A stretch of 64,000 nucleotides of DNA, taken from Methanocellales archaeon. GTDB lineage: Archaea > Halobacteriota > UBA148 > JAUWXC01. The translations under genes were made by a program, and so were the position numbers. The notes beneath the pieces are model-generated. The model saw nothing but the letters and a program-made list of their open reading frames with translations. It did not search any database and was not told the DNA's origin. Location: positions 83,641-147,640 of the forward strand of contig JASEEY010000001.1 of the NCBI GenBank assembly GCA_030018435.1, written 5' to 3'. This document shows, in pieces, positions 9,143-51,947 of this stretch; position 1 is the stretch's first letter, and each line of letters begins with the position of its first letter.

Positions 9143-9250
9143 AAATCCTCACCCAATTTGCATTGTGTTGTTCTTGATATATAAAGACGTGAGTCAACGG
9201 CAATCAGCATAGATAAGTTAAATAAAGGCCTCAACATTCTTATGATAGGC

Positions 9251-10798
9251 ATGAAATTTAACCCAGCTGAAATTAAAGAGAGGGCAAGAAAGGATTTTGA
9301 GAGCACATGGAAAGAGACGGCCAGTTTTGTTGATAGAGAGGTCAGAAAATTCAACCTACCAAAGAAGAAGGGGAAGACGCATCCATTGACAACATATTCA
9401 GAGAAAGCACGTAACATACTTCTCGATATGGGCTTTGATGAAGTCATGCTGAAGCCTATCTGGGATGAGCAACATGTTAAGCTCCAGTATGGTCCTGAGG
9501 CGCCAGCTATCTTAGACAGACTTTATTATCTTGCAACGCTTCCTAGACCGGATATCGGTCTATCTGATGAGAAGAAGAAATTAATAGGGCGTAGAATCAA
9601 GGGCTTCAACAACTTCGAAAAACTCCAAGACATCTTGAAGGATTACAAAAGGGGCAAGATAGAATCTGGAGAGGATTTTACGGAAGCGCTGGTTACCGGA
9701 TTAAACATAAAGACCGAGGATGCGCACTTTTTGATTAACGATGTCTTTTCTGAACTAAAAGAGGTCAAACCAGAGCCGTCTACTCTAACACTGGTCTCGC
9801 ATTTGACCACGGCGTGGTTCCCAACGCTTCAAGCGATCCAAGGTAAAAGAGAATTGCCAATAATGTTATTCACTCTCGGATGGCGCTTCAGGAGGGAGCA
9901 GAGAGAGGACCCAACGCATATGAGGGCGCATTACAACCTGAGCACGGTCGTCATGGATGAAGATTTTACAATAGCAGACGGGAGATACATTACCGAGGAG
10001 TTTTTCAAAAGGATGGGATACGACAAAATAGAATTTCGGAAGAAGCCGAGCACGCCTGCCTACTATGCCCCTGGCACCAACTATGAGGTATTCGTAAAAC
10101 ATCCAGAGCAGGGATGGATTGAGGTTACCGAGATTGGCATGTATTCACCGGTTGCGCTTGCCAATTATGATATTACATACCCCGTCTTTAACTCTGGTCC
10201 TGGTTTAGGCAGAATAATCATGTTATCCGAAGGTATCGGGGATATCAGGGAGGTTCATTTCCCGGAATTCTATACAGAGCTGACCCTGAGCGATGAGAGA
10301 ATCGCTGCCATGATCAGTATTGACAAAAAGCCGGAGACGCCTGCAGGAAAGGAGATTATAGAGGCAATCATCAAGACGTGCGAGAAATACGGCAATGTAC
10401 TCTCTCCATGCAGATTCGAGGCATGGAAAGGCAATGTCGGGGGCAGACACATAGGAGTGTACGTAGTAGAGGAGGAGAAAAACACAAAACTCTGCGGACC
10501 GGCATTTCTCAATGAGATAGTGGTATATCGCGGCGATGTCATCGGTGTTCCGCCAACGAAAAGATTTGAGGAAATCCGCAACAAGGGTATTCGCACTGGC
10601 ATCAAGTTCATCGACGGATTTGCCGCACTGGCGGCGCATGAAATCGAGCGCGGAGAGAGGACCATCAAGATAAAGATAGCAGAGGCACTGAGCGATGTAA
10701 ATGTGAAGATAGATCCTGTCGCGATTAGGTATATCCAGAGCAATAACAAAAAACTCGACATAAGAGGTCCTGTGTTCACCACTGTCAAGGTTGAGTGA
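9251..10798 (+). CDS. sepS: O-phosphoseryl-tRNA(Cys) synthetase (SepRS)
   Basis: Strong match to recalled M. jannaschii SepRS blocks: GPEAPAILDRLYYLATLPRPDIGL, KPEPSTLTLVSHLTTAWFPTL, FRREQRED and GPVFTTVKVE. An alternative start lies at 9242. Confidence 0.9.
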   Translation: MKFNPAEIKERARKDFESTWKETASFVDREVRKFNLPKKKGKTHPLTTYSEKARNILLDMGFDEVMLKPIWDEQHVKLQYGPEAPAILDRLYYLATLPRPDIGLSDEKKKLIGRRIKGFNNFEKLQDILKDYKRGKIESGEDFTEALVTGLNIKTEDAHFLINDVFSELKEVKPEPSTLTLVSHLTTAWFPTLQAIQGKRELPIMLFTLGWRFRREQREDPTHMRAHYNLSTVVMDEDFTIADGRYITEEFFKRMGYDKIEFRKKPSTPAYYAPGTNYEVFVKHPEQGWIEVTEIGMYSPVALANYDITYPVFNSGPGLGRIIMLSEGIGDIREVHFPEFYTELTLSDERIAAMISIDKKPETPAGKEIIEAIIKTCEKYGNVLSPCRFEAWKGNVGGRHIGVYVVEEEKNTKLCGPAFLNEIVVYRGDVIGVPPTKRFEEIRNKGIRTGIKFIDGFAALAAHEIERGERTIKIKIAEALSDVNVKIDPVAIRYIQSNNKKLDIRGPVFTTVKVE

Positions 10799-10799
10799 G

Positions 10800-11513
10800 A
10801 TGAAGTTGCTCCTTTTGTTGCCAACTCTAAATGAAGAAGGAGCGCTAAAGGCGCTGGCAAATGAAATTCCCAATGAATTTGAAGTTCTGGTGGTGGATGG
10901 ATGCTCGACGGATGGAACGAAGGATGTTGTACTCAAGCACAATTGGCAATTCATCACCCAGAGGTATGGCAGGGGCAAGGGATGTGGCATCAGGACGGGC
11001 ATGGAAGAGTTTCTGAAGACAGATTGTGATTATCTTGGTATCATCGATGCGGATTACACATGCGACCCCAAGGAAGTGGCAAGAATACTGCAGGCGCTGA
11101 AGGATGATGACTTCGAGGTGATGCTGGGCAGTCGCGATAAGGCGAATCAACTGCAGTATTTAGGAGAGTTTTCAGTATTCGTCAACTGGCTCATATCTAG
11201 CATGGTATCACACGTATATAAGCAGAAACTATCCGACGTCCAGACTAGCTATTGGCTGTTTACCAGAGATGCAGTCGATAGAATCTTGCCATGCTTAGCG
11301 GCGAGTGGTTTTGAAATCGAATATGATTTGCTATACAATGCGTGGCGACTGGGATTAAAAATAGGGGAAACACCCGTAAGTATCAGAAGAAGGATAGGGA
11401 AGAGCAAATTTAGTACATATCACAGGTTCAAGCAGATAGTATATGGACTGAAATATCTATTTCTGAGCCTGGGGCACCTACATGGAAAGCGATATTTTTT
11501 GCAAAAAGCGTGA
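10800..11513 (+). CDS. GT2 glycosyltransferase, dolichyl-phosphate mannose/glucose synthase-like
   Basis: GT-A fold motifs (VLVVDGCSTDGT, IIDADYTCDP); about 238 aa. The ORF track begins at TTG 10791. Confidence 0.65.
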   Translation: MKLLLLLPTLNEEGALKALANEIPNEFEVLVVDGCSTDGTKDVVLKHNWQFITQRYGRGKGCGIRTGMEEFLKTDCDYLGIIDADYTCDPKEVARILQALKDDDFEVMLGSRDKANQLQYLGEFSVFVNWLISSMVSHVYKQKLSDVQTSYWLFTRDAVDRILPCLAASGFEIEYDLLYNAWRLGLKIGETPVSIRRRIGKSKFSTYHRFKQIVYGLKYLFLSLGHLHGKRYFLQKA

Positions 11514-12156
11514 TATTATATCACTGCTTGAGACTCAAAAAATCGTGGCCGATCAAGCAATCGTTGAAGATCGATTTGAAACGCTGAAAGGCGTTGCTGG
11601 CGTAGATCAGGCATTTTTTGATGACAAGGTCATCTCTGGAATTGTCGTTCTTGATTATGAGACGATGGATGCTCTGGAGAAGATACACTCAATTGAAGAA
11701 GTCGATTTTCCCTACATCCCCACTTTTCTGTCATTCAGAGAAGGACCTGCAATCGTATCTGCATTTCGCACCCTAAAAAACAAACCTGACCTACTGATGG
11801 TCGATGGATGTGGCATCAATCATCCCCGCAGGGCAGGGCTGGCAACCCATGTCGGCGTTGCGCTGGACACGCCAACGATAGGCGTCGCGAAGAGACTATT
11901 GTGCGGGGTCGTCAAGACGCCTACGAAAGTCGACGAGTGTAATCCTATACTCTTAGATGGCAAGCACGTAGGCGCATCCCTCCTCTCAAAGAGTGGTTGT
12001 AATCCCATCTACATCGCACCAGGGCATAGGGTTTCTCTGCGCACTACGATCAAGATTGTAAAACATTGCCTGCGCGGATACAAGCTTCCGGAGCCGATAC
12101 GAGTTGCGCATGAGTATGTTGGCAGGGTCTCGAAACGTTTAAACAGTGGGACGTAG
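11482..12156 (+). CDS. nfi: Endonuclease V (deoxyinosine 3' endonuclease)
   Basis: EndoV motifs FPYIPTFLSFRE and VDGCGINHPRRAGLATHVGV. Confidence 0.85.
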   Translation: MESDIFCKKRDIISLLETQKIVADQAIVEDRFETLKGVAGVDQAFFDDKVISGIVVLDYETMDALEKIHSIEEVDFPYIPTFLSFREGPAIVSAFRTLKNKPDLLMVDGCGINHPRRAGLATHVGVALDTPTIGVAKRLLCGVVKTPTKVDECNPILLDGKHVGASLLSKSGCNPIYIAPGHRVSLRTTIKIVKHCLRGYKLPEPIRVAHEYVGRVSKRLNSGT

Positions 12157-12175
12157 AGGGTAAGGTGGGTTTAAC

Positions 12176-12604
12176 GTGGATAAGAGAACAAAAGCCCCAC
12201 GGCAATGGACACTTCTCGCTGCAACAGCAGGTCCAGAGCCGGCATCCAGAAAAGTGAACTTGATAATTGATATCGCCAAACAGTTAAATGCAAGATTGGT
12301 GGTTTTGTATGTCATCTTAGCTCTGGGTTCAGTTCCTCCATCCTACTGGGTAGAAGATGGAAGAAAGGCCATTGAAATTTTTAAACAGGCGGGTAAGAGA
12401 GAGAGTGTTGATGTCAGAGGTGTGCTGGTGGAGAGTGAACATATTGATAGTGCGATTCTAAGCACTGCCGAAGATGTTGGTGCGAATATGATCATATTAG
12501 GTGTAGGGCGTCACAGCGTTTTGAGACATCTCTTAGGTGGTGATTTCATAGAACACATCATATATCGTTCCCAGCGGCCTGTAATAATAATCCCTACACT
12601 TTAG
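12176..12604 (+). CDS. Universal stress protein (UspA family)
   Basis: Usp alpha/beta fold signature; C-terminal GxGxHS-like GVGRHSVLRHLLGG. Confidence 0.6.
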   Translation: MDKRTKAPRQWTLLAATAGPEPASRKVNLIIDIAKQLNARLVVLYVILALGSVPPSYWVEDGRKAIEIFKQAGKRESVDVRGVLVESEHIDSAILSTAEDVGANMIILGVGRHSVLRHLLGGDFIEHIIYRSQRPVIIIPTL

Positions 12605-13862
12605 CAGTGTTGTAGATATACCATGCGATGCCTGTGCTCAATACGCCAAATCCTATGATTAAATCTTTCGCGCCAAACTGCGCTATTAAAATTAAGCAGG
12701 AAGCAGCACCAAGCATTGGAGTTACAGGATATCCAGGTGTTTTAAAGGCAGGCATTTTCTTCTTCACTTGCCTGTTGTATATCACCGCAAAGTCAACGAG
12801 CATAAACGCAAATAGAACCAGAACGTTAGCAGCCTTCGCAAGTTTTTCGATATCCGCGATTATGGCTCCTGCAATCACCACAATTCCAATGAGGAAGACG
12901 GATATGTGCGGCGTCTTAAACGTCGGGTGAACCCTAGAAAGGATGAAGGGCAGATTTCTGTCCCGCCCCATCGCCAAGGATATCCGAGATGCAGCTAGGA
13001 TGCACATGTTGATGGTGGATATCATCGCGAGAAATCCAATAATCGTTATCAAAATTATTCCAGCATCACCCATAACCACCTCAGCTACGTCAACTATGGC
13101 CTTTGTTGGGTGAAGCTCATCATAGGCTACAATGCCGGTCATAGCGAGCGCGACCAACATATACACGCAGGTCACCACCCCGATCGAAAGCACCATTGCG
13201 CGCGGGGCATTGCGCTCTGGTTCCTTCAACTCCTCCACCATGGTTGCGATTATAGCGAAACCTATGAAGGTCACGTAGAGAAGTCCGGCGGCTTTAAAGA
13301 CGTTGCTCCAGCCATAAGGCGCAAAGGGCCAGTATAAAGCTGGATTGATGCTTGGAATGCAAATCGCTGAAAAAATGCCCAACGTGACGAGTAGTATGAG
13401 CGTGATGATGTTCTGTAGTTTGGACGATATGCGTACACCAACGTAGTTGACGAACGTTATTGCAATGCCAATTGTGACTATGCCTAACGTTCTCGGTATG
13501 TGTTGAAAGAAAACGCTGGCAAACACGATCAACCCCAATAGGCTGAACCCAGATTTAACCACCAAGCTGAACCATTTTCCCCAACCGGCAAGGAATCCCC
13601 AGATGCCTCCTACAGTTTCGTTGACGAGGACGTATGCTCCGCCCGCCTTGGGTATTGCCGTAGCTAACTCGGCGTGACAAAGAGCAGTCAGCATAGAAGC
13701 GATACCAGCAATAAGGAAGGAGATGATGATAGCAGGTCCAGCCATATTTGCAGCGAGACCAGGTAGCACGAAGATACCTGCACCGACCATTGCCCCGATG
13801 CCAATCATCGATGCATCTAAAAACCCAAGGATGGGGGGTAGTTTATCATATTGTTTTACCAT
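12594..13862 (-). CDS. Amino acid permease (APC superfamily)
   Basis: Twelve TM helices and APC motifs (GIGAMVGAGIFVLPG…). The ORF track extends to 14162, but an in-frame MVKQYDKL start at 13862 fits the family length of about 423 aa. Confidence 0.8.
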   Translation of the reverse strand: MVKQYDKLPPILGFLDASMIGIGAMVGAGIFVLPGLAANMAGPAIIISFLIAGIASMLTALCHAELATAIPKAGGAYVLVNETVGGIWGFLAGWGKWFSLVVKSGFSLLGLIVFASVFFQHIPRTLGIVTIGIAITFVNYVGVRISSKLQNIITLILLVTLGIFSAICIPSINPALYWPFAPYGWSNVFKAAGLLYVTFIGFAIIATMVEELKEPERNAPRAMVLSIGVVTCVYMLVALAMTGIVAYDELHPTKAIVDVAEVVMGDAGIILITIIGFLAMISTINMCILAASRISLAMGRDRNLPFILSRVHPTFKTPHISVFLIGIVVIAGAIIADIEKLAKAANVLVLFAFMLVDFAVIYNRQVKKKMPAFKTPGYPVTPMLGAASCLILIAQFGAKDLIIGFGVLSTGIAWYIYNTAKV

Positions 13863-13961
13863 GTTTTGCACCTTACCCCAGCTTCTTGAGAACTTTGGTG
13901 TGTTTTGGTACAGACTCGTTATATATCTGTCGAACTTGGCTTGTGAGTTTATGTAACGTTT

Positions 13962-14900
13962 TTGTACGGAGCTGGCAATATACAAATCAAATGCATCCGC
14001 ACTGTGATACCAATGATCAAATATCAACTTATGCACGCAAAATCGATGTTGGTCGGCTCGCCAGACGAGTGGTTTAGGAGCGGATGGAATCTGAACACAT
14101 ATCGCGGGTGCGAGCACGCCTGCAATTACTGTTACGCGAGATCCCACAAATACCTGATACATTCAACCGAGGAGGCTTTTGATCGAACCATATTTGTTAA
14201 AATAAACGCGCCTCAGGTTCTGCGAAGAGAACTGGAAAAACTTTCGAAAAAAGGAAAGAAGGGCATCATTTGCTTTAATTCGGCATCTGACCCCTATCAG
14301 CCTTGCGAGGTGAAATACAAAATCTCGAGAAAAGTGTTAGGAGTCATAAAAGATTACCACTTCCCGTGTCACATAATGATGAAATCCGACCTAATCTTAA
14401 GAGACCTGGACCTGCTCAGAGAAGTCTCAGAAAGAGCTTGGTGCACCGTCTCCTTCACCATAACGACCTTTGAGCTAGCGGAGCTATTGGAGCCAAAAGC
14501 ACCAGAGCCAGAGAGGAGGTTGAACGCGATGAAGAAACTATCCGAGGAAGGGGTTTCAACTGGTATTCTCCTGATGCCCATCATTCCTTACCTAACTGAT
14601 AATAAAGAGAACATCGAGGAAATCGTCGAGAGGGGTGCTGAGAGCGGCGCCGAGTACGTGATCCCGGGAGAGATGACTTTGCGGGACGCGCAAAAGGAGA
14701 GATTTATGAAATTGCTGGAAGAGACATTTCCTGAACTAGTGGAGAAATATGAGGCCCTGTATAAAAACTCAATCCCCGGCGAGGAATATAGGTCGAAGGT
14801 CACTGAAATCATCAAGAGCGTCTGCCATAAGCATAAAATGCCCATGAGAATACCAGAGCCAAGGATTAAGAGATATGTGCAGAGCGAGCTGCTGCCCTAG
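13962..14900 (+). CDS. Radical SAM domain protein (SplB-like / DNA repair photolyase-like family)
   Basis: CEHACNYC is a CxxxCxxC motif. The protein is about 300 aa. The true start may be an internal Met (MIKYQL… or MHAKSML…). Confidence 0.6.
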   Translation: MYGAGNIQIKCIRTVIPMIKYQLMHAKSMLVGSPDEWFRSGWNLNTYRGCEHACNYCYARSHKYLIHSTEEAFDRTIFVKINAPQVLRRELEKLSKKGKKGIICFNSASDPYQPCEVKYKISRKVLGVIKDYHFPCHIMMKSDLILRDLDLLREVSERAWCTVSFTITTFELAELLEPKAPEPERRLNAMKKLSEEGVSTGILLMPIIPYLTDNKENIEEIVERGAESGAEYVIPGEMTLRDAQKERFMKLLEETFPELVEKYEALYKNSIPGEEYRSKVTEIIKSVCHKHKMPMRIPEPRIKRYVQSELLP

Positions 14901-14959
14901 CAAAAGCCTTAAAATACTATTATTCAATATTGAGAAGTATATCAATATTGAGGAGATAT

Positions 14960-15619
14960 ATGGCAGATATCAATGCGCTCAAAAAACTGGCATTATTGGG
15001 TGCCATCAAAGGTCCAATTCAACTATCGTCATCCAGCTTCGCCAAGCACATATCATCGAGCACCCAGACTGCATCACGGCGACTGCAAGCACTTGAGCGA
15101 GAGGGATTGATTTCCAGAAGCATTCTCCCGGCAGGAGGACAACATATTACGATCACCAAAAGCGGGAAGGATGCGTTGAGAAACGAATGCTATGAGTACC
15201 AAAAGATTTTCGAACCGATCAAGAACGAAGTTATGCTAAGGGGCGAGGTGATCACCGGTCTCGGAGAAGGACAATACTATATGTCGCTGGAAGGATACAG
15301 AACGCAATTCAAAGATAAATTAGGATTTATACCATATCCGGGCACGCTAAACCTCATACTGGATGATAAGAGTACTGTCCTCAGGAAGAAATTGGATGAA
15401 GATGAGGGCATCCCAATTCATGGTTTTAGCTCCCAGCAAAGGACGTTTGGTGGTGGCAAGTGCTTCAGGGCTGCGATTGAAGGAATAGAGGGTGCAGCCA
15501 TACTTCCGGACAGGTCACACTACCCTAATAATGTATTAGAGGTCATTGCACCAAAAAATCTTAGAAAAATGCTCAGGCTGAAGGATGGGGGTGAAATTAG
15601 CGTGAGGGTCGTCTTATGA
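14960..15619 (+). CDS. ribK: CTP-dependent riboflavin kinase fused to an N-terminal wHTH domain (RbkR-like regulator/kinase)
   Basis: An N-terminal HTH (…ASRRLQALEREGLISR) is followed by an archaeal RibK domain (GEVITGLGEGQYYMSLEGY…GFIPYPGTLNL). GGAG lies 4 nt before the ATG at 14960. Confidence 0.75.
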   Translation: MADINALKKLALLGAIKGPIQLSSSSFAKHISSSTQTASRRLQALEREGLISRSILPAGGQHITITKSGKDALRNECYEYQKIFEPIKNEVMLRGEVITGLGEGQYYMSLEGYRTQFKDKLGFIPYPGTLNLILDDKSTVLRKKLDEDEGIPIHGFSSQQRTFGGGKCFRAAIEGIEGAAILPDRSHYPNNVLEVIAPKNLRKMLRLKDGGEISVRVVL

Positions 15620-16314
15620 AACGTAAAATTGAGAACGTATGCAAAGCGATTGCATCCGTGAAAAGGGGCAATGTCGTCCTGATATACGACTCTGATAATA
15701 GGGAGGGAGAAACCGATATCGTGATGTCTGCGTGTGCGGTCACCCCGAAACACGTAGCACTGATGCGAAGGGATGCGGGTGGGCTGATATGCGTTGCGAT
15801 ACATCCCATCGCAGCGGAGCGACTTAGGCTACCATTCGTGTCAGACCTTTTGAGATATGCAAGCGGCAGTGGCCTTGATGTCGCGGAAGTAGTAGAGAGG
15901 CCGGGTGATGTTCCATATGACAGAAGTTCGTCATTCTCGCTCTGGGTCAATCACAGGAAGACCTTTACGGGAATAACAGACATCGATAGGGCGCTGACCA
16001 TCAACGAGATTGGCAAGGCCGTCCGCTTATCGATGAACGGTGCTGGGATCGATTTTGGCAAGGAGTTTCGCTCGCCGGGACATGTTCCGTTGCTGAGAGC
16101 AGCGAACAATCTGCTTCGCGAGAGAAGAGGTCAGACCGAGCTGTCGATTGCCCTAGCTGAGCTTGCAGGAATTACACCTGCAATGGTCATGTGTGAGATG
16201 TTAGATGAAGGGAGCGGAAGGGCGCTTTCTAAAGAAGGTGCCAAGCGCTACGCAGACGTCCGCGGACTCGTTTTCCTCGAGGGTGACGAGATCATAGATG
16301 CGTGCGACCGCTGA
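15616..16314 (+). CDS. ribB: 3,4-dihydroxy-2-butanone 4-phosphate synthase
   Basis: DHBP synthase motifs (DSDNREGETDIVMSA, GHVPLL). Confidence 0.85.
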   Translation: MKRKIENVCKAIASVKRGNVVLIYDSDNREGETDIVMSACAVTPKHVALMRRDAGGLICVAIHPIAAERLRLPFVSDLLRYASGSGLDVAEVVERPGDVPYDRSSSFSLWVNHRKTFTGITDIDRALTINEIGKAVRLSMNGAGIDFGKEFRSPGHVPLLRAANNLLRERRGQTELSIALAELAGITPAMVMCEMLDEGSGRALSKEGAKRYADVRGLVFLEGDEIIDACDR

Positions 16315-21687: not shown

Positions 21688-22644
21688 GTGTATGCGTTGA
21701 AGCAGATCATACACTCTATCTATGATGGATACGAACGCCTACTTGCCAAGGAGGTTATGGAAGGTCCTATTCCGTCGCATATCGCAATTATTCAGGATGG
21801 AAATAGGAGATATGCCGCAAAACTTGGTGAACCTCTACATCATGGTCATATATCTGGGGCTCACACTACTGAGAAGGTCTTGGAGTGGTGCATAGAGATT
21901 GGAGTTAGGCAACTGACCGTTTATACTTTTTCCACCGAAAATTTTCACAGGTCGTATACCGAGAAGGTACAACTCTACAAACTGTTTAAACAGAAATTTG
22001 AAGAAATGTGCACCGATGATAGAGTCCATAATCACAGGGCAAGGGTAAGAGCTGTGGGCAATGTAGAACTATTTCCATGGTGGGTGAGAAAGGCGATCAA
22101 AAAGGTTGAAGAGGTTACTAAGGATTATGATGAATTTTACCTTAACGTAGCGCTGGCGTATGGTGGGCGGCAGGAGATTGTGGACGTGGCAAGGGTAATA
22201 GCCAGAAAAGTTGCTGCTGGAGAATTGAAGGCTGAGAACATCGATGAGAAAACCATATCTGCCCACCTATACCAGGGCAATCCCATCAACGTAGATTTAA
22301 TCATACGCACGGGCGGAGAAAGACGCATGTCTAATTTCCTTCCCTGGCAGGCGAGCGGCAATGAATGCGCTGCCTATTTCTGCGCACCGTACTGGCCGGA
22401 GTTCAGGAAAATCGATTTCCTCAGGGCCATCAGGACATACCAGATGAGAGAACAGGAAAGGCGGCACAACACCGTGCTGAGGGTCGTCAAACTGTTAAGC
22501 GAATGCGGACGTGCTGAGGTTGGAGAGGTAATTGCCATTTCCAAGCGCATACTGAATACGACGAGAGACGATATAATGATGATTTTAAGGTCACTTCCCA
22601 AATCTTCTCTGCCGCCTCTGGAAGTCCCTGATCGCCCTCAATAA
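21688..22644 (+). CDS. uppS: cis-prenyltransferase catalytic subunit (UppS/DHDDS-like) with a C-terminal extension
   Basis: Catalytic motifs IIQDGNRRYA and ERRMSNFLPWQ are present. The C-terminal RxG motif is absent. A ~70-aa extension follows. GTG start. Confidence 0.8.
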   Translation: MYALKQIIHSIYDGYERLLAKEVMEGPIPSHIAIIQDGNRRYAAKLGEPLHHGHISGAHTTEKVLEWCIEIGVRQLTVYTFSTENFHRSYTEKVQLYKLFKQKFEEMCTDDRVHNHRARVRAVGNVELFPWWVRKAIKKVEEVTKDYDEFYLNVALAYGGRQEIVDVARVIARKVAAGELKAENIDEKTISAHLYQGNPINVDLIIRTGGERRMSNFLPWQASGNECAAYFCAPYWPEFRKIDFLRAIRTYQMREQERRHNTVLRVVKLLSECGRAEVGEVIAISKRILNTTRDDIMMILRSLPKSSLPPLEVPDRPQ

Positions 22645-23244
22645 GTCCACTTTTCTAAAACCAGACCAGTTAACGTCTGTGAAATAGAGCTCTGAGTAGA
22701 CGGATTGCCATATCAGGAAATCCGTTAGTCGAACTCCTCCGGTTTTGATGATCAGATCCGGCGCCGATTTAAATATTAAATGTGATTCTATCAGCGCTTC
22801 ATTGATGTCGTCGGGTGTCATCTCGCCGCTTTCAACCTCTTGCGCAATTTTCTTTATCGCTTGCGTAAGTTCATATCTCCCGCCATAGCCAATTGAGATT
22901 TCAAGCGATGCACCTGGTTTATCGTGCCTCATTCTCACTTTTTCATTCCCGGTATAAATCGTGATTTCGGCTGGTAGACCGTCCATCATCTTAATCAATC
23001 GTTCCCTCAATTTTGAGCAGAACTGCCTGCCAATTTCCCCAGCATCAATAACGCTGACGTGCATCGTGATCCGCATAATTCCCATCTCGGCACACCAGGA
23101 GGTGATTGCCCTGAGCTTTTTAATATCATCATCCGTTTGCAAATCGTCATCTGCGATAACAAGAAGTATGTGTTGTGGAAGCTCTTCTTTCTTAATCTGG
23201 CTGATAATTCTCCGTTCGTATGGGTCTAGAATAGCACCACTCAT
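22591..23244 (-). CDS. cis-prenyltransferase family, non-catalytic NgBR/Nus1-like subunit
   Basis: UppS fold in which the DGNRR catalytic motif is replaced (LLVIADDDLQTDD). It ends in RRFGK, an RxG motif. It is convergent with uppS and overlaps its 3' end. The track ORF extends to 23346; MSGAIL is the likely start. Confidence 0.65.
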   Translation of the reverse strand: MSGAILDPYERRIISQIKKEELPQHILLVIADDDLQTDDDIKKLRAITSWCAEMGIMRITMHVSVIDAGEIGRQFCSKLRERLIKMMDGLPAEITIYTGNEKVRMRHDKPGASLEISIGYGGRYELTQAIKKIAQEVESGEMTPDDINEALIESHLIFKSAPDLIIKTGGVRLTDFLIWQSVYSELYFTDVNWSGFRKVDLLRAIRDFQRRQRRFGK

Positions 23245-23284
23245 CTTGACTAAATATAAGTAAGTAAAGAGATAAAGTGTTTTT

Positions 23285-24550
23285 GTGGGAGGATACTTGG
23301 AAAAAGAAAAACACGAGGGGTTGCTACTAGTCTTATTTGGTTGCATAGCCCTAATGCTGCCCTTTTTTAGGGAATATCAGTTAACGCTCATCGTTTTAGC
23401 CCTGACTGTTGGTGTACTCATCAAACGCAAACGTCCATCAAGATCATTACATCTCTGTTTTGCCGTTTTGACGTTGGCAATACTATCATGGGTGTTGCAC
23501 CTGCCAATGTATATCGTTGGCGCATCGATTGCCATCAGCGTTTTCGGCTCTTTCGCATCCAGCACCGTTGAACAGGCACATCACATAAAGACGATTCCGG
23601 GCAGCATCTTGTTTCTCATTTTCGGCATCATATCTGCATTTCTCGTTGGCAGTTGGACCGCCGCATTCTCAGATCCCGGAGAGACGTTCTACCAATTCAT
23701 GTTCTTCTTGGCAACAATAGGCGCAGTGACAGGAGCACTACTCAAATCCATTCAACATACAACTGACAATTTAACCATACCCTTTGGATCAGCGATGGCG
23801 ATGTGGTTATTTGCAGGATTTGAATACTGGGTTTCTCCCCCCCAGGTCATGCTTGCGCTTGCGCTCACACTCACGATCGGATATATATCATACATGGTAA
23901 ACACGGCAGATATCACAGGAGTACTAAGTGGAACGTTGCTCGGCGTCCTGATCATCATTTTCGGAAGCGTTAAATGGTTCACAATCCTTCTGGCATTTTT
24001 CGTGCTAGGAGGGGTGTTCACAAGATATAAGTACGGATATAAGGAGTCGTTGGGAATTGCGCAGGCAGAAGGCGGGGCGCGTGGGTATAAAAACGTGTTC
24101 GGCAACGGGCTGGTTGCCCTGATTTTGGCCGTCGCTGAGGGTGTGTGGGGCTGGCACGTGCTGTTAATCGCTTATCTGGGAGCTGTGGCCACTACTACAG
24201 GAGACACGCTTGCCAGTGAGATCGGCGAAACGTCAAAGACGCAACCAAGGATGATCACGTCCTTTGAGAGGGTCAAGCCTGGCACCAGCGGCGCCATATC
24301 GCCTCTTGGCGAGGTCTCCGCGCTGGTAGGCACAATCCTCATAGGAGCGCTCGCCGTATTGTTGGGGATGACGAAATTGCAGATGATCGTCATCGCCCCC
24401 ATTCTCGGGGGGTTCATAGGCGTTCACGTTGATAGCCTGCTTGGCGCAACCCTAGAAAACAAAGGATATCTGACGAATCACTCCGTCAATCTTCTTGCAA
24501 CGGCGTCTGGGGCGATTGTATCTATGGGTTTGTATTATGCGCTTGTTTGA
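23285..24550 (+). CDS. DUF92/TMEM19/VTE6-like integral membrane protein (putative polyprenyl-phosphate kinase family)
   Basis: Polytopic, with conserved DUF92 (COG1836) blocks (GGARGYKNVFGNGL, ATTTGDTLASEIG). Confidence 0.6.
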   Translation: MGGYLEKEKHEGLLLVLFGCIALMLPFFREYQLTLIVLALTVGVLIKRKRPSRSLHLCFAVLTLAILSWVLHLPMYIVGASIAISVFGSFASSTVEQAHHIKTIPGSILFLIFGIISAFLVGSWTAAFSDPGETFYQFMFFLATIGAVTGALLKSIQHTTDNLTIPFGSAMAMWLFAGFEYWVSPPQVMLALALTLTIGYISYMVNTADITGVLSGTLLGVLIIIFGSVKWFTILLAFFVLGGVFTRYKYGYKESLGIAQAEGGARGYKNVFGNGLVALILAVAEGVWGWHVLLIAYLGAVATTTGDTLASEIGETSKTQPRMITSFERVKPGTSGAISPLGEVSALVGTILIGALAVLLGMTKLQMIVIAPILGGFIGVHVDSLLGATLENKGYLTNHSVNLLATASGAIVSMGLYYALV

Positions 24551-35952: not shown

Positions 35953-37150
35953 TGACCTCGCTCAGTGTCAATAACTCCTGTTCGCCCGTCTTCATGTCTT
36001 TGAGCGTTACCCTTCCCGCTTGCAGTTCTTTTGGTCCCACGATGACTGCATGCGAAGCTCCAATTGCGTTGGCATATGATAGCTGGGCGGTGATGCTCCG
36101 CCCCATCACATCGACGTATGTCGGTATATGCTCTCTCAGGGAAAGTGCAATCTTGAGCGCATCCTTTCTCGTCTCATCTCTTGTTATGACGACGACTCTC
36201 TTTTGAGCCCCCATCTTTACATCCAGCGCCTCGACGACCCTGTCAAAACCGAAGGCGAAGCCCGTAGCGGGTACATCCTCTCCATCCAGCAGATGCGCCA
36301 GGCGATACGCCCCTCCACCGCATATCTGATTCTGCGCACCCAGATTTTTCGCGTATATTTCGAACACCATGCCGGTATAATATTCCAGACCTCTGGCGAT
36401 GCCAAAATCGGTCTTGTATCTGACACCGAGCGCATTCAGTATCTCCAACACATTTTCAAACTGTCGCAACTCAGAAACATCTCCGACGATCTCGCGCGCC
36501 TCATCGACATTCTTGCTCTTTATCAGAGCTAGAAGCGCATCCTTTAATGTGGCATCCCTGTCTTTCAAGAGTTTCACAAGCCCCTGCCTATCCTTTTTAT
36601 CGATGCACCTCATGGCTGCGCGTTGCACTTCCGGCGCTAACGAGCGCATGAGTCCTCTGAGCACGCCCAAGTGCCCAATGTGCAAATCTCCCTTGAGCCC
36701 TATTTCATCCAGCATGGTGGACGCAAGTGCGATGACCTCGGCATCTGCCTCCGGCCTATCGCTGCCTATGAGCTCAACCCCGAAATGCCAGAACTCCCTG
36801 AAGCGGGCCTTCTGGGGTCGCTCGTATCTGAAGCAGTTTCCAAAATAATAAAATCTGAGCGGCTTTGGCTTTTTCTGAAGCTTGTTTACATACATTCTAA
36901 TTACGGGCGCGGTCAATTCCGGGCGGAGCGCCAGCGCCCTTCCGCCTTTATCCTTGAACTCGTAAATCTCCTCCACGATTGCCTCGCCGGACTTGATGGT
37001 GAACAATTTCAGGTCCTCAAAGGTCGGCGTTTGAATCTCCTGGTACCCCCAGCGTTCTGCAATCTCTCGCATTTTGCATTCAATCAAACGCCTCTTTGCC
37101 ATGTCCAGGGGTAAAAAATCGCGTGTCCCTCTCGGTCTCTGGACCTTCAT
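35936..37150 (-). CDS. hisS: Histidyl-tRNA synthetase
   Basis: Class II motifs (…RGTRDFLP…, [20 protein letters not shown]). Start taken at MKVQRPRG, in an ATGA overlap with the upstream gene; the track ORF runs to 37243. Confidence 0.9.
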
Positions 37151-37830
37151 TTCTTGCCCTCTCGAACCCGCCTCAGGTACTCGTTTATCATCGCCGGAAA
37201 TGATGTTGCATCGACGTATCTCAGTCCCAGCCGCTCGGCCCATTTTCTGATGCCGTGGTCGGCTGCCACCACGGCTGCATCCAGTTCTTTTGCCAGAAGC
37301 AGAACGTCGATGTCAGGTGTGCTGTCCAGGATTCCATAGCGCAGCGCGTTCCTGTACTTGTTCCTGAACTTGGAAATGTTACCGCCGATGACCTCGCGCT
37401 CGATTTTTTCTTCTATATCCTTTTTGCTCTTGGCCTTCGTTTTCGCGAGCAGGCATTCTCTGGCTGCGTCCCTTATCGCCTCTTCGGCGACGACCATGCC
37501 CTTGTTAATCCTGCTCCGCATGTAGTCGACATAATCGTGAAATATCTCGGCGGGAATCTTCACCTCAAAACGGTCAGGGGTCTTCTTGACCAGCCAGGTA
37601 TCGATCTTCGACAATAACTCTTCTCCCGCATCCTGCCGCCTGGCGATGTCCCTTATCTCGCTGTACACGGTGGGATATGGCACGTAGCAGCTTATCTCCA
37701 GGTGCAGCCTGGCCTCGGCGATGATATCCAGAATGGCGCTCATGCCATCATACAGGGAGGCGTAACCTTCTTTCTTTCGCGTCTGAACATCGGTCAGCGC
37801 TGTCGTGTCCAGCACAAATCGCTGTCGCAT
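37147..37830 (-). CDS. PIN-domain-containing conserved archaeal protein (COG1458-like)
   Basis: An N-terminal [17 protein letters not shown]-like acidic motif; about 228 aa from MRQRF. The track ORF starts at 37914. Confidence 0.4.
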
Positions 37831-37925
37831 GTTTGTTACCCCTATGACGTTATTTATAACTACGCGTATATCATTTAATACTTCTTCCAAAGAAGATATT
37901 AGTGAGTCGAACATAGTAGGTAGCG

Positions 37926-38684
37926 ATGTGTCTAAGGGACATACTCAGCAGGGTAAAAAACGGCGACATGGACCTCATCGAGGCAGAGAAACAGATAAGG
38001 CTCTATGGGTATCAGAGCGTTGGCAAAATCGCCAAACTTGACGCGTGTAGAATGGCAAGGATTGGCGTACCAGAGGTAATTTTGGCAGAGGGGAAGAACG
38101 CAGAAGACCTCATGGACATAGCCATGGCTCAATTGAAGTCAGAGGGAAGGGCTATCATCACGAGGGTATCGGACGAGCAGCTGGGCGCGCTACGAAAAGC
38201 ATCCAAGGTGGAATGGCATCCACATGCAAGGGTAGCAATTCTTCGGAAAAAGAAGAAGTCCTCTACAGACGGGGTTGTAGGCATCATCGCTGCGGGAACC
38301 GCCGACATCCCGGTCGCCGAAGAAGCCAGGATCATCGCGGAAGAGATGGGCTGTAAAGTCATCACCGCATACGATGTGGGTGTTGCGGGCATTCATCGAC
38401 TCTTTTCAGAGTTGAGTAAAATGATCGACGCCGGTGTGGACGCGCTCGTGGTCGCGGCCGGCAGGGAAGGGGCGCTGCCGGCGGTGGTGGCAGGTCTTGT
38501 GGACGTGCCGGTTATCGGTCTTCCTGTATCTACGGGATATGGCGCTGGCGGTAGTGGCGAAGCCGCTTTACTATCAATGCTCCAGTCGTGCTCGGTACTT
38601 TCAGTGGTGAACATCGACGCTGGCTTTGTCGCAGGAGCGTTCGCCGCGAAAATCGCCAACAAGGCAAGAGAGGACAAAAAATGA
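37926..38684 (+). CDS. PurE-like (AIR carboxylase family) protein, LarB-like
   Basis: PurE fold ([16 protein letters not shown]…) with a ~100-aa N-terminal extension typical of LarB-type proteins. Confidence 0.55.
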
Positions 38685-39121
38685 GGCCTACTGTGGATGA
38701 ATACTTCATGGAGATAGCATCTGTGGTGGCAAAAAGGTCCACATGTTTAAGAAATCAGGTTGGGGCGGTGATCGTAAGAGACAAACGAATCCTTGCAACC
38801 GGCTACAATGGCGCTCCCAGAGGACTGGCACACTGCCTCGACATTGGATGCATCAGGGAGCTGAACGAGATTCCGTCCGGAGAGCGCCATGAATTGTGCA
38901 GGGCGGTCCACGCAGAGCAGAACGCGATACTGCAGGCGGCCATCCACGGCGTGAGCACGGAGGATGCAACCATCTACTGCACCCACCAGCCGTGCATCCT
39001 GTGCGCCAAGATGATGATAAACGCGGGAATAAAGAAGGTCGTCTTCGCAAACCAGTATCCAGACACGGAGGCGCTTGAATTTTTAAAACAGGCCCATGTT
39101 GATGTTGTGAGGTTTGGGTAG
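38681..39121 (+). CDS. dcd: dCMP deaminase (cytidine/deoxycytidylate deaminase family)
   Basis: HAEQNAI and [13 protein letters not shown] zinc motifs. ATGA overlap with the upstream gene. Its last ~85 bp is repeated twice downstream. Confidence 0.85.
39037..39121. repeat. Direct repeat copy 1 (native 3' end of dcd, 85 bp)
   Basis: ggtcgtcttcgcaaaccagtatccagacacggaggcgcttgaatttttaaaacaggcccatgttgatgttgtgaggtttgggtagg. Confidence 0.9.
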
Positions 39122-39215
39122 GTCAGCTGTCCGGCTGTCCTTTACGACAAGGTTTTTATGCTCCCGGACACACATAATCATGTCTGCAGGAACGTGGGTG
39201 CTGCAAGGTGATGAC

Positions 39216-39416
39216 ATGAAGTTCAAGGTTGTGATCAGAGAAGGGGAGGATGGCTGGTATGTCGTTGAGTGTCCATCTCTACCCGGCTGTATTTCTCAAG
39301 GAAAAACTAAGAAAGAAGCCCTGGAGAACATCAAAGAGGCCATCGAGCTTTATCTGGAGCCAGAAGAAGTTCAGGTGACGCAGAAAGGAGAGCGAATAGT
39401 AGAGGTAACAGTGTGA
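39216..39416 (+). CDS. hicB: HicB-family antitoxin (UPF0150)
   Basis: MKFKVVIREGEDGWYVVECPSLPGCISQGKTKKEALENIKEAIELYLE. AGGTGA RBS 8 nt upstream. The track ORF starts at 39114. Confidence 0.75.
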   Translation: MKFKVVIREGEDGWYVVECPSLPGCISQGKTKKEALENIKEAIELYLEPEEVQVTQKGERIVEVTV

Positions 39417-39640
39417 CAAGACTGCCGGTTATCTCTGGGGAAGAAGCGATTAAGGTGTTGAATAAGGCTGGTTTTGTTTTCGTTAGGCAGAAAGGAAGTC
39501 ATGTCAGGATGAAGAAGGTCACATCTGAGCGGACCATTAATGTGACCATACCACTTCATGATGTTTTAGATAGGGGCACGCTGAGGAGCATTATTAGAAG
39601 TGCTGGCTTGACCGTTGAAGAGTTCGTTGAATTGTTGTAA
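39413..39640 (+). CDS. hicA: HicA-family toxin (mRNA interferase)
   Basis: …KVLNKAGFVFVRQKGSHVRM… HicA signature. GTG start inside a GTGTGA overlap with hicB. Confidence 0.7.
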   Translation: MTRLPVISGEEAIKVLNKAGFVFVRQKGSHVRMKKVTSERTINVTIPLHDVLDRGTLRSIIRSAGLTVEEFVELL

Positions 39641-39664
39641 GAAACAGGTTGCGGGTATCAAAAG

Positions 39665-39749
39665 GGTCGTCTTCGCAAACCAGTATCCAGACACGGAGGC
39701 GCTTGAATTTTTAAAGCAGGCCCATGTTGATGTTGTGAGGTTTGGGTAG
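39665..39749. repeat. Direct repeat copy 2 (85 bp, one mismatch relative to copy 1)
   Basis: Identical to 39037..39121 except for an A to G change (aaaacagg becomes aaagcagg). Confidence 0.9.
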
Positions 39750-39786
39750 GATGAAGCGTTGTAAAGATGAAGATTAGTCAAATACC

Positions 39787-40089
39787 TCACGCTTCGGGCT
39801 GGACGATCATCTTCTTGTTTTCGACCATTATCCTTACATCTTCGCCCTTCTCTAAATTTAGTGCCTCTTCCACAGACCGGGGTATTCGAAGTACCAGACT
39901 GCCGCCTACCTGCCCGATTTTTCTCGTCACAGCGATTTTCAAGAGTTTTTCTTTTTGTGCCAGCATTTTTCTCATCTGTTTCTCTGTAAACTCGACCTCT
40001 CCACATTTTGGGCATTTATAGCCCTCGCTGATTATGCCTGCCACTTCAACCTTCTTTTTCTCCATAATTTCTCCACATTCGCACTTCAT
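39787..40089 (-). CDS. Putative antitoxin: N-terminal zinc ribbon plus a C-terminal AbrB/MazE/SpoVT (swapped-hairpin) domain
   Basis: CECGE…CPKCGE Zn ribbon. The segment VTRKIGQVGGSLVLRIPRSVEEALNLEKGEDVRIMVE is an AbrB-like fold. Confidence 0.55.
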   Translation of the reverse strand: MKCECGEIMEKKKVEVAGIISEGYKCPKCGEVEFTEKQMRKMLAQKEKLLKIAVTRKIGQVGGSLVLRIPRSVEEALNLEKGEDVRIMVENKKMIVQPEA

Positions 40090-40090
40090 T

Positions 40091-40312
40091 TTAATCTCCT
40101 ATCGTTATGACCCTGAATCTGTCCGGGAGCTCCTTTACGACAAGGGTTATCTTCCTTTTCTTAAACTTTTTTGAGACTTTGTACATGTTCTTGCCAAACG
40201 GTTTCCATTTGCCTGTTAACAACACCTCGTTGACCATGTCCAGATCTGTTACGCGAAACAATCTGTCGAACATGTGTTTCGTATAGGTGACTTTCTTCCC
40301 TCTGACAATCAT
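40091..40312 (-). CDS. Small basic protein, putative toxin partner (family unidentified)
   Basis: 73 aa, immediately upstream of and co-oriented with the Zn-ribbon/AbrB protein, separated by 1 nt. Confidence 0.35.
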   Translation of the reverse strand: MIVRGKKVTYTKHMFDRLFRVTDLDMVNEVLLTGKWKPFGKNMYKVSKKFKKRKITLVVKELPDRFRVITIGD

Positions 40313-40377
40313 TCATATCTTCTTGATATCATTTTAATATCTTTTTGTATTTAAGAGTTTGGTGTGCGTCAGAATAA

Positions 40378-40445
40378 ATATCCAGACACGGAGGCGCTTG
40401 AATTTTTAAAACAGGCCCATGTTGATGTTGTGAGGTTTGGGTAGG
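40378..40445. repeat. Direct repeat copy 3 (5'-truncated, 68 bp)
   Basis: tatccagacacggaggcgcttgaatttttaaaacaggcccatgttgatgttgtgaggtttgggtaggtca. It shares the extension GGTCA with copy 1. Confidence 0.9.
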
Positions 40446-40593
40446 TCAAAGCCGTTGGTATAGGAAAAGAGAATGTAGAAAAGATAAGACAAGTTACATC
40501 CGAACTTGAGAATAAATACTCCAATATGACAAAAAATCGATGAAGAGAGAAGCGTTTATATCTGCTAAACTACCTTTTTATCGTCCTCAATTT

Positions 40594-41421
40594 TCAGACC
40601 ACCAACTTATCCCTGACCTTTGCATAGAACCCCCTGTCGGTTTTGACGAAGAGCGCCGGCGTCTTTGCCTTGGTGAATCTGATGACGTCCTTCTTCGTGA
40701 TTTTTTGAGTGTACTGCCCGTCTACGACGAGTAGCGCCTCCTTGCCGGCTTTCAGCAGCTCCACCCTTATCTCGCTGTCCGCCGGCACGACCCAGGGGCG
40801 GGCTGAAAGCTTGAATGGTGCCAGAGGAACGACGACGAATGCATCTATCTTGCGGTCAACGATTGGGCCACCCGCGCTCATGGCATATGCAGTCGAGCCG
40901 GTGGGCGTTGCCAATACCAAACCGTCTGCTCTCGTGGTCTCGAGCTCCTTTTCGTCGACCAAAACCCTGAAATGAAGCATCTTCGCGGGTCTGGATGTTA
41001 CTATTACCGCTTCGTTGGTCGCAGGAGGAAGTTCTTCTTCATTGACAGATACGGCAAGTCGCGTTCTCTGCTCCACTTCAAATCCATCAAGCACTTTTTT
41101 GATGATGTCTTTCGCACTCTTCGCGCTTACATCTGCAAGAAATCCTATCTTGCCCATATCGATGCCCAGGATGGGAGTTGGCTTGCTCAATAGCTGAAGG
41201 GCTCTCAATATGGTGCCGTCCCCTCCCACGGTGATGAGTACATCCACATCCATATTGGCGATAGGAGTTGATTCACGCTTGCCGACCTTTGTAGCGGTCC
41301 TCGGGTCCAGGACGATTTTAACGGCATCCCCGATCTCATCCATGATCTCCTTCACCATTTGCACATCGCCCGCCTCGCACCTCGAGACGATTCCAACCTT
41401 CTTCGGTCTCATTTGTTCCAC
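40594..41421 (-). CDS. nadK: NAD kinase
   Basis: GGDGTILRA and NEAVI…T motifs; 275 aa. Confidence 0.85.
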   Translation of the reverse strand: MEQMRPKKVGIVSRCEAGDVQMVKEIMDEIGDAVKIVLDPRTATKVGKRESTPIANMDVDVLITVGGDGTILRALQLLSKPTPILGIDMGKIGFLADVSAKSAKDIIKKVLDGFEVEQRTRLAVSVNEEELPPATNEAVIVTSRPAKMLHFRVLVDEKELETTRADGLVLATPTGSTAYAMSAGGPIVDRKIDAFVVVPLAPFKLSARPWVVPADSEIRVELLKAGKEALLVVDGQYTQKITKKDVIRFTKAKTPALFVKTDRGFYAKVRDKLVV

Positions 41422-51052: not shown

Positions 51053-51418
51053 TCACATCTGCGATTTCACTATCTCTTTTGTCCCTCTAATGGCCTCTTT
51101 TGCATCCTCTATCGCAAGCTCTGCATCCTTCATGGTTATCGCAAGGGGATCGTCGTAGGTATCTCTATGGATTCTCCTTAGGTCATTATAAATACCCAGA
51201 AGTACTGTCTCAGATGGATAATAGCGTAGTAGTAATTCACCAATTCGCTTATGGTCAAAAATCTTTTGTATTCCTTTCTCTTCTGGCAGGGCTTGGATGC
51301 ATTCTGATACTGCAAGCCAGCATTGGGAGATCATACCGGCAGGCCATCCTCCATGCTGGCGAAGTCTAATGGCATCGTCTAAGTACGCATCGGCCGCTCT
51401 GATATATCTATTCTCCAT
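51053..51418 (-). CDS. HEPN domain protein
   Basis: 121 aa, alpha-helical with an Rx4-6H-like region. Overlaps and is downstream of the MNT gene. Confidence 0.55.
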   Translation of the reverse strand: MENRYIRAADAYLDDAIRLRQHGGWPAGMISQCWLAVSECIQALPEEKGIQKIFDHKRIGELLLRYYPSETVLLGIYNDLRRIHRDTYDDPLAITMKDAELAIEDAKEAIRGTKEIVKSQM

Positions 51419-51947
51419 ACAATATCTTCCCCTTCAGCAGAAACCTCCTAGAACGGTCAACATCCTTCTTGGGAATCACCTCTAGGTGGATATCTCTGTT
51501 TATCATTTTCTCAAGTTCAGACAAAATATTGATAATTTTCTTGTAAGTAGCATATTTTGATAATTTCGATATAACAGAAATGTCTATATCGCTGTTTGGC
51601 CTGGCCGTTCCTTTGTAAGTACTTCCAAACCAGATGATCTTTTCGATATACTCCTTGGGCAATCTTTCTGCAATGAACCTCGCTGTTATTTCCTCCTCCT
51701 TCTTCATAGTAGAGGTGATGAGAGCAGCTGCTGGGTGCTTCCTGTTTATCCTTATCCTCCAGTTTTTCATACTTTTATCAATTGAAACAACACCAAGTTT
51801 TTCTAATTCAAGCAACCCTTCATAAATCACTTTTTTAGACATGCCACATAGCTCAGCTAACCTTGAAAGTGACTCGACATCATTTTCAGCTAAAGATTTG
51901 AGTATTCTAATCCTAGATTTATTGCCTAAGACATTTTCTAATATCAT
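51408..51947 (-). CDS. wHTH plus minimal nucleotidyltransferase (MNT) domain protein
   Basis: N-terminal wHTH (…ILKSLAENDVESLSRLAELCGMS…) and an NTase motif GSTYKGTARPNSDIDIS. Confidence 0.6.
   Translation of the reverse strand: MILENVLGNKSRIRILKSLAENDVESLSRLAELCGMSKKVIYEGLLELEKLGVVSIDKSMKNWRIRINRKHPAAALITSTMKKEEEITARFIAERLPKEYIEKIIWFGSTYKGTARPNSDIDISVISKLSKYATYKKIINILSELEKMINRDIHLEVIPKKDVDRSRRFLLKGKILYGE

Follow-up and report, generated by a model that had tools for sequence, protein, structure and literature searches.

How two toxin-antitoxin (TA) pairs came to lie between three direct copies of the 3' end of a housekeeping gene is the question raised by dcd, the dCMP deaminase gene, in a 64-kb window (the whole stretch of DNA analysed) from a Methanocellales archaeon. 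Exact protein look-ups (proteins MDI6888216-25) assigned the window to a contig of 156 kb from the metagenome-assembled genome (MAG) of a Methanocellales archaeon, and the dcd protein of the window is identical to MDI6888218.1 from that MAG. The explanation favoured here, which is considered probable from comparison of the locus with its relatives, is tandem accretion of integrase-less mini-elements at an attachment site (attB) in the dcd 3' end.

Structure of the dcd array

The dcd gene is located at 38681-39121 on the plus strand (PF00383, E 4.9e-28). At its end lies a 66-nt string, ATCCAGAC...GTGAGGTTTGGGTAGG (end GGGTAGG), consisting of the last 21 codons, the stop codon and one further base. 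The string has three plus-strand copies in the 64-kb window, no others were found elsewhere in it, and 0 of 100 shuffles of the window gave a match. These repeats are real and are far beyond chance. Copy 1 forms an attL-like junction (39057-39122, plus strand) and is exact, with 0 mismatches; dcd reads through it to the stop codon, leaving the target gene intact. Copy 2 (39651-39750, plus strand) consists of a diverged arm (39651-39684) and a 66-nt core (39685-39750). Copy 3 forms an attR-like junction (40379-40445, plus strand) and comprises 67 nt of the dcd 3' end, truncated on the 5' side and identical to copy 1; the identity begins at 40379 and the exact 66-nt string occupies 40380-40445, again with 0 mismatches. 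The original prediction, made from the letters of the DNA alone, had given 39037-39121 and 39665-39749 as an 85-bp repeat with one mismatch, which is exact, and had placed the start of copy 3 at 40378, which is corrected here to 40379.

The core of copy 2 differs by a single A-to-G change at 39715, and the same change is present in two related loci described below (L085 and L086). Over its full length copy 2 is 95% identical to 39023-39122, with four of the five mismatches clustered at 39028-39036. Its extra left arm is 34 nt of dcd-like sequence encoding GIKRVVF, compared with GIKKVVF in dcd itself. This diverged arm, with mismatches clustered to the left of 39037, has the appearance of a recombination-junction signature.

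Interval 1 contains only hicB and hicA, and interval 2 only the AbrB-p73 pair. The hicB antitoxin gene (39216-39416, plus strand; 66 aa, short UPF0150-type, PF15919, E 4e-10) overlaps the adjacent hicA toxin gene (39413-39640, plus strand; 75 aa, PF07927, E 6e-19) by 4 nt, an organization that would identify a HicAB pair with a HicA toxin resembling double-stranded RNA-binding domains. On the minus strand, p73 (40091-40312), encoding a basic 73-aa putative toxin of predicted BrnT/RelE fold, is the first gene of its pair and is followed by a 100-aa antitoxin-like gene (39787-40089) with an AbrB/MazE (SpoVT) domain (PF04014, E 1e-7, residues 60-99); a four-cysteine zinc ribbon, CxC...CxxC, is visible in the translated N-terminus of the latter. 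The p73 upstream region (40313-40379, minus strand) forms the element-side arm beside copy 3 and carries an A/T-rich TTAAATA-like element. Cassette 1 begins with a 24-nt remnant of a p73-type 3' end (39127-39150; plus strand, with the p73 gene in reverse), which resembles 40119-40145. The gene content predicted originally (HicB, HicA, an AbrB domain, zinc-ribbon cysteines and dcd) was confirmed by Pfam and by translation, the 73-aa open reading frame (ORF) giving no Pfam match, and the assignment of one TA pair to each interval, hicBA and AbrB-p73, stands.

The two units are 0.63 and 0.70 kb. The genes of cassette 1 lie on the plus strand and those of cassette 2 on the minus strand. A separate upstream region, 67-94 nt long, belongs to each cassette, and all four cassette genes are intact in the window. 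The intervals contain no integration or transfer genes and no remnants of other element genes were found between the repeats. To the right of copy 3 an A-rich spacer of 148 nt (40446-40593) precedes the stop codon of the NAD kinase gene (40594-41421, minus strand; PF20143 and PF01513), which is convergent with dcd.

The dcd site in related genomes

A screen was performed on 80 dcd loci from GTDB species representatives, at no more than 81% protein identity; ~590 further dcd loci that were found lie outside this set. A second copy of the dcd end within 6 kb was present at 0 of the 80 representative loci, therefore the feature appears to be confined to close relatives of the window. Closer relatives, with dcd 90-97% identical, were taken from the protein database.

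A Methanocellaceae MAG (L004) has the order HisRS, dcd, NAD kinase, IMPase, eIF5A and agmatinase, and is interpreted as an empty site because 6 nt separate the stop codon of dcd from that of NAD kinase. NAD kinase forms the conserved right-hand border of the hotspot, with synteny kept in L004 and in L102 (dcd 97% identical, same synteny as the window). In L102 dcd is followed by the same cassette 1 leader, by hicB and by a hicA frameshifted through a 1-nt deletion. Beyond hicA are the last ~30 nt of copy 2, from another dcd allele, then the C-terminal 47 codons of AbrB (a truncated gene), a SatD gene and NAD kinase; neither p73 nor copy 3 was found at the dcd locus of L102. L086 carries AbrB, p73, a 65-nt dcd-end copy and ~22 nt leading to the NAD kinase stop codon. 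L085 carries AbrB, p73 and a dcd-end copy, followed by a 4.4-kb block of five genes (227-4627) and NAD kinase. No second dcd-end copy bounding the L085 block was found, therefore the block either entered the hotspot by another route or has lost its distal repeat. Among the products of this block are an HATPase_c_3 protein and another with matches to the candidate defence family PDC-S02 and to DUF1016_N.

An unrelated cargo is present in L105 and L106, two independent assemblies with dcd 92% identical. In both, a second copy of the final 65 nt of dcd, 88% identical, lies 1.65 kb downstream, and the cargo between consists of genes for 87 aa and 119 aa, a HicB fragment and a VapB-like gene with a PIN gene. 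In L103 (dcd also 92% identical) the dcd stop codon is directly followed by GGCAAAACTAGATTTAG... and a DUF1699 gene; because this flank is the same as the flank after the distal copy of L105, L103 is taken as the empty site for the L105 insertion. The distal copy of L105 is closer to the L103 gene end than is the proximal copy (83% versus 77%, a small difference). The distal copies in the window (copy 3), L085, L086 and L105 all begin AT[C/T]CAGAC despite their different cargo, and the repeat starts of the two unrelated cargos (window/L085/L086 versus L105) agree within 1-2 nt.

The original prediction had regarded the repeats as att sites of serial insertions, each regenerating the dcd C-terminus, and had named comparison of the dcd flank across relatives as the means to check this. 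The comparative data support it: both empty sites (L004 and L103) and other sets of cassettes at this repeat (L102, L085 and L105) were found, and a three-copy arrangement fixed in all relatives, the outcome named as contrary, was not seen. The content of the dcd 3' site thus varies between related genomes.

Beyond the inserted cargo, L105 has a long TA-rich islet after dcd (8442-16100, GCA_030610945.1) with three PIN (VapC-like) pairs, a weak BrnT_toxin match, DUF1699 and pilin genes; the dcd-end copies bound its first 1.65 kb only. On the other side of dcd, HisRS and LarB are separated in the window by a PIN_5 ('RNA ligase partner') gene (37147-37914, minus strand). It is present in the window and L102, absent from L103, L105 and L004, and 92% identical in nucleotide sequence to that of L102, compared with 81-83% for its neighbours. 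This gene may be another recent acquisition beside the hotspot.

Sequence identity and exchange of the modules

The nucleotide identity between the window and L102 is 82.5% for HisRS, 80.8% for LarB, 86.7% for the 5' part of dcd, 82.3% for NAD kinase, 82.1% for IMPase and 83.7% for eIF5A. For the modules the values are 96.5% (hicB), 96.0% (hicA) and 97.4% (AbrB remnant). In comparisons of the window with L086 and L085, respectively, identity is 98.0% and 99.3% in AbrB, 95.9% and 97.3% in p73, 98.5% and 100% in the 67 nt upstream of p73, 87.7% and 89.7% in the dcd-end copy, and 87.3% and 87.4% in NAD kinase. These data show that the TA modules were exchanged horizontally after the hosts diverged, because the modules are 96-99% identical and the flanking core genes 81-87%.

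The step from cassette-level to host-level identity (98.5-100% to 88-90%) coincides exactly with the left edge of copy 3, as would be expected from a crossover near that edge, in which the distal copy represents the displaced host gene end and the element brings a new one.

The modules outside dcd

The AbrB-p73 module (39774-40362) was found at 93-94% identity in other genomic contexts: between metallo-beta-lactamase and DUF2179 genes in L081, a contig from the same genome as L105; adjoining a ParE gene in L087; and beside other TA pairs in L090 and L099. Homology of the p73 upstream region with L081 and L087 stops at 40362. On the p73 side of the module, L081 (~9895-9950) and L087 (~340-395) have a conserved AATCGAAAAATC, a hairpin and GGAAAAATCGAT; the 7-bp stem of the hairpin shows compensatory changes (CCGATA/TATCGG versus CTGGCA/TGCCGG).

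The hicBA module was found behind a DUF7847 gene in L088 and L089, with a HicB protein identical to that of the window. Here a 26-nt direct repeat, TTAACCAKATGAGGTTTGGTGTGYTT, flanks hicBA (1376-1401 and 1962-1987 in L088; 1190-1215 and 1776-1801 in L089). This repeat and the end of the dcd repeat have TGAGGTTTGG in common, and a related GAGTTTGGTGTGCG is located upstream of p73 in the window (40355-40372). The TTAACCAKATGAGGTTTGGTGTGYTT-type repeat is possibly a secondary site, or else an older att scar. A universal crossover core, GAGGTTTGG, was considered and not adopted, as it is absent from the dcd-end copy of L085.

The p73 remnant of cassette 1 is also found in L102, where 8447-8471 matches 40119-40143 at 96%, and L088 and L089 carry a longer, 68-nt remnant (40078-40145, 95.6%). 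It appears to be the scar of an earlier rearrangement between cassettes, which would mean that the cassettes are not clean units. The reshuffling of the modules has followed more than one route, and units accrete and decay in the array, which is far from an orderly store of cassettes.

The 148-nt spacer had been predicted to be a remnant of a further cassette. It is ~120 nt longer than the equivalent interval in L086 (~22 nt) and L004 (6 nt), and 10 of its first 13 positions agree, in fixed register, with the flank that follows the proximal copy of L105; no homologue of the spacer was found in any fetched locus. The length and the short match hint faintly at a possible remnant of a third element.

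Search for a recombinase

Every window ORF of at least 180 aa, together with smaller ORFs near the array, was scanned against Pfam. No integrase, resolvase, transposase or Cas1 was detected among these ORFs and all identifiable products were housekeeping or membrane proteins; the predicted lack of an integrase in or near the array therefore holds across the 64-kb window. There were no tRNA genes in the window, and the region 38500-41000 gave only sub-threshold noise against Rfam families. Exact att patterns of 34-55 nt gave 0 matches in viral contigs and JGI metagenome contigs. Searches of viral contigs with the p73, AbrB and HicA proteins gave nothing, or only HicA relatives of 44-48% identity, and cassette DNA had no match in phage and plasmid records.

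Two further candidates were rejected. A split integrase of the SSV type was not compatible with the locus, as no long ORF would span the att site in a circularized cassette. A transposon or casposon with target-site duplication was rejected since no terminal inverted repeats bounding the units were found, and 66-100 nt far exceeds known target-site duplications.

Proposed mechanism and alternatives

In the mechanism that we favour, the dcd 3' end of this Methanocellales lineage would be a hotspot of site-specific integration, with an attB of ~65-67 bp running from TATCCAGAC to just past the stop codon. Small circles carrying a look-alike of the dcd end would insert in Campbell fashion, such that the cargo ends between two direct copies and dcd is kept intact; two insertions stacked in tandem would give the three copies of the window. 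The cargo would be self-contained type II TA modules, namely hicBA and a BrnT/RelE-fold toxin with a zinc-ribbon-AbrB antitoxin. Since the units contain no recombinase, they would be either minimal elements that are mobilized in trans or remnants, stabilized by addiction, of larger elements whose integrase was lost. Once formed, the array would decay and be reshuffled through deletions and through recombination of one cassette with another. Presumed in this scheme are circular intermediates, a trans-acting recombinase of the tyrosine type and a crossover near the left edge of the repeat. The gene-restoring direct repeats, the empty sites, the repeat edge shared by different cargos and the diverged arm of copy 2 all point to this Campbell-type tandem anatomy.

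Several observations weigh against this mechanism. Neither a cognate recombinase nor an integrase-bearing element, free attP form or circle was found in the window, viral contigs, phage and plasmid records or the 111 loci. In 39031-39140 no dif-type palindrome was found, that is, no arm pair with at least 8/11 matches and a 4-9-nt spacer, a threshold reached by shuffles in 33% of trials. The left edge of copy 2 differs from that of copy 3 and is an exception to a defined repeat boundary, and the near-identity of the three window copies requires very recent events or gene conversion. The leader and tail segments of the cassettes are 79-88% identical and less conserved than the TA genes, which fits gene-sized conversion or replacement as well as transfer of whole cassettes. 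No flanking direct repeats were found at six AbrB-p73 loci away from dcd (L081, L087, L090, L094, L095 and L099), so the module can also spread without the dcd att.

Host homologous recombination was considered as an alternative that would give the same products through a different enzyme. In this view a single Campbell-type crossover inserts circular or linear DNA with a piece of a dcd 3' end, the repeats are homology arms and not att sites, and later gene conversion homogenizes them. The homology shared with dcd is uneven in length (100 nt for copy 2, 67 nt for copy 3), the 98.5-100% identity among the window copies is what conversion would give, the greater conservation of the TA genes relative to the leaders suggests gene-sized recombination tracts, and neither a recombinase nor a binding-site palindrome was found. 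An archaeal integrase giving an outcome like homologous recombination on ~100-bp segments is also known (PMC8371274). However, repeat starts within 1-2 nt of each other in unrelated cargos are unexpected for homology-driven crossovers, 65 nt at 88% identity is a poor substrate, and the copies in L102 and L105 have stayed diverged, with no conversion there. Homologous recombination is regarded as an unlikely but serious alternative for the crossover itself.

A second alternative is that the repeats and TA genes are inert scars: one or two large integrase-bearing elements would have entered at dcd, all but the TA genes would have been deleted, since addiction modules resist loss, and the residue would have been inherited vertically with patches of recombination. 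Decay of this kind is evident in the p73 remnant of cassette 1, in L102, with its truncated copy 2, truncated AbrB gene and frameshifted hicA, and in the mosaic insert of L105 with its HicB fragment; loss of the integrase after integration is documented in archaea (PMC8371274). It is difficult to reconcile with cassettes that are 96-99% identical across hosts differing by 13-19% in the flanking genes, a pattern that implies arrival or exchange after divergence, with four intact genes in the window and with intervals lacking any remnant of other element genes. We give this history a low probability.

It is equally doubtful that the 0.6-0.7 kb units are currently active cassettes of a dedicated archaeal capture system, in which a recombinase from another part of the genome, or from a plasmid or virus that was not seen, would recognize the 66-bp dcd-end site and shuttle single-module cassettes in and out and between lineages. 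If this were the case, it would be a functionally integron-like platform working on a gene-end att instead of attC hairpins, and the recurrent GAGGTTTGG(TGTG) at other cassette borders (L088, L089 and the upstream end of p73) would mark secondary sites.

An integron-like platform in the strict sense, where promoterless cassettes would be captured by a dedicated integrase at folded attC-type sites, is highly improbable. The analogy had been drawn in the original prediction, and the array-like layout, with one small module per interval, is in its favour. Integrons exist in Archaea (PMC9668308). As general background, TA cassettes are common in chromosomal integrons. Against this, the locus departs from an integron in every defining feature that was tested: neither IntI nor any recombinase was found in the 64 kb and the repeat is the coding end of the target gene, not an attC: both strands of the 66-nt and of the 108-nt repeat fold worse than shuffles (z +1.0 to +1.7), giving no hairpin. 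The cassettes also point in opposite directions, instead of sharing one orientation downstream of Pc/attI, and have their own upstream regions, and the repeats are uniform in sequence, whereas the attC sites of an integron are variable.

The least credible explanation is an assembly artefact, a possibility raised in the original prediction; here the MAG assembler would have concatenated strain variants with different cassettes at one site. This is suggested by a short-read source and by short, almost identical repeats, but it is contradicted by independent assemblies from other samples that reproduce the junctions piecewise (cassette 1 then the start of cassette 2 in L102; cassette 2 then a dcd-end copy in L085 and L086) and by the agreement of L105 and L106, and even a chimera would imply cassette polymorphism at the att.

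Comparison with known systems

The proposed tandem accretion at dcd has a counterpart in bacterial cis-mobilizable elements (CIMEs), which have lost the integrase, keep attL and attR, and accrete with newcomers at an att containing the target gene's end (PMC5704250). Accretion of this kind is found at the fda 3' end with ICESt1/ICESt3 of Streptococcus thermophilus (Pavlovic 2004, Bellanger 2011, reviewed in PMC5704250). Like the dcd array, CIMEs are integrase-less units between attL/attR direct repeats with an att that includes the 3' end of a protein gene; they form tandem arrays by successive integration into a resident att, and decay of the element is part of the process. Features of a CIME-type unit that were found at dcd are flanking direct repeats with an intact target, empty sites, alternative cargo and units free of integration or transfer genes. 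The differences are that the dcd host is archaeal, that the units of 0.63 and 0.70 kb carry a TA pair only, and that no related mobilizing integrase-bearing element was found, and no conjugation context is known, at dcd. By analogy, the CIME appears to be the bacterial concept that fits the dcd array best.

In archaea, integrated mobile genetic elements of Thaumarchaeota integrate at 3'-distal regions of protein genes and in tandem (PMC6563490), att identities are 40-60 bp and can exceed 100 bp, and loss of the integrase after integration is documented (PMC8371274). Such elements have in common with the dcd array a protein-gene 3' target, a replacement end supplied by the element, the range of att length, tandem reuse of a site and integrase-less cases. 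They differ in being at least 5 kb and carrying replication, viral or integrase genes, compared with the single TA module at dcd, and dcd is not among the integration targets named in the parts of the two papers that were read. The original prediction knew of no general precedent for such arrays in archaea. This does not hold for the process, since integrase-less att-flanked accretion (PMC5704250) and archaeal tandem integration and integration at protein-gene 3' ends (PMC6563490 and PMC8371274) have been described.

Integron cassettes, including those of archaeal integrons (PMC9668308), resemble the dcd units in forming small single-function arrays with frequent TA cassettes and an enzyme encoded outside the cassette. 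The dcd array differs in having no IntI, attI or folded attC, a repeat that is a fixed copy of a host gene end, separate upstream regions and mixed orientation. Integrative mobile elements exploiting Xer (IMEX) at dif, such as CTX phage arrays, also insert in tandem without an integrase at one site, use the host recombinase and leave direct repeats of the site; the dcd site, in contrast, lies in coding sequence, has no dif-like 11-6-11 imperfect palindrome and shows nothing to suggest a replication terminus.

The dcd array is an archaeal, integrase-less, miniature TA-only version of known att-site accretion, and no new principle is involved. It indicates that single TA modules in methanogen-related archaea can act as att-flanked units that are stacked at the end of a housekeeping gene and pass from one lineage to another. 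With its empty sites, its alternative cargo and a defined 66-bp site, the locus offers a concrete case that can be compared from genome to genome. It could serve both in the search for the archaeal recombinase responsible and in work on the assembly of small defence and addiction islets. A further addition is a rare, predicted BrnT/RelE-fold toxin family paired with a zinc-ribbon-AbrB antitoxin.

The putative p73 toxin family and its AbrB partner

The predicted fold of p73 matches BrnT/RelE toxins. No Pfam match was obtained for p73, the BrnT_toxin family included, PADLOC gave no match, and a profile search against PDB sequences returned nothing relevant. The family is very small, with 13 clusters among 5.8 billion proteins. 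In every context recovered the p73 homologue is directly followed by an AbrB/MazE protein of 91-100 aa; these contexts are from relatives of Methanocellales and Methanosarcinales and from one Aenigmarchaeota MAG. In the latter (GCA_016180925.1) and in Logan contigs (together L095-L098) the p73-AbrB pair, at 72% protein identity, is located between DUF1622 and MgtE genes. The family crosses phylum boundaries, because the pair occurs in a DPANN-type archaeon.

From the predicted fold, the most likely products of cassette 2 are a RelE/BrnT-fold toxin and a zinc-ribbon-AbrB antitoxin. TA activity of the pair is inferred from the strict gene pairing in the 13 clusters. In brnTA the toxin gene comes first, as in the p73 pair. 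When compared with BrnT-BrnA and the RelE-superfamily type II TA systems (BrnT structure 3u97), p73 lacks a family match at the sequence level, and its partner has a zinc ribbon and an AbrB/SpoVT domain in place of the ribbon-helix-helix of the antitoxin BrnA.

Other observations in the window

A second TA-like pair is located between hisB and metG (51053-51947, minus strand). It consists of an MNT nucleotidyltransferase (PF18765 and PF01909, with an N-terminal helix-turn-helix) and a 121-aa protein with a weak HEPN match (E 0.03); no gene-end direct repeats flanking this pair were found. At the start of the window (139-2987, plus strand) are two consecutive ORFs of 336 and 613 aa without a significant Pfam match, the 613-aa ORF giving only weak hints of a DUF2298-type membrane protein. 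Two convergent, slightly overlapping ORFs at 21688-22644 (plus strand) and 22591-23346 (minus strand), both match the undecaprenyl diphosphate synthase family (Prenyltransf), the latter in its C-terminal half only.

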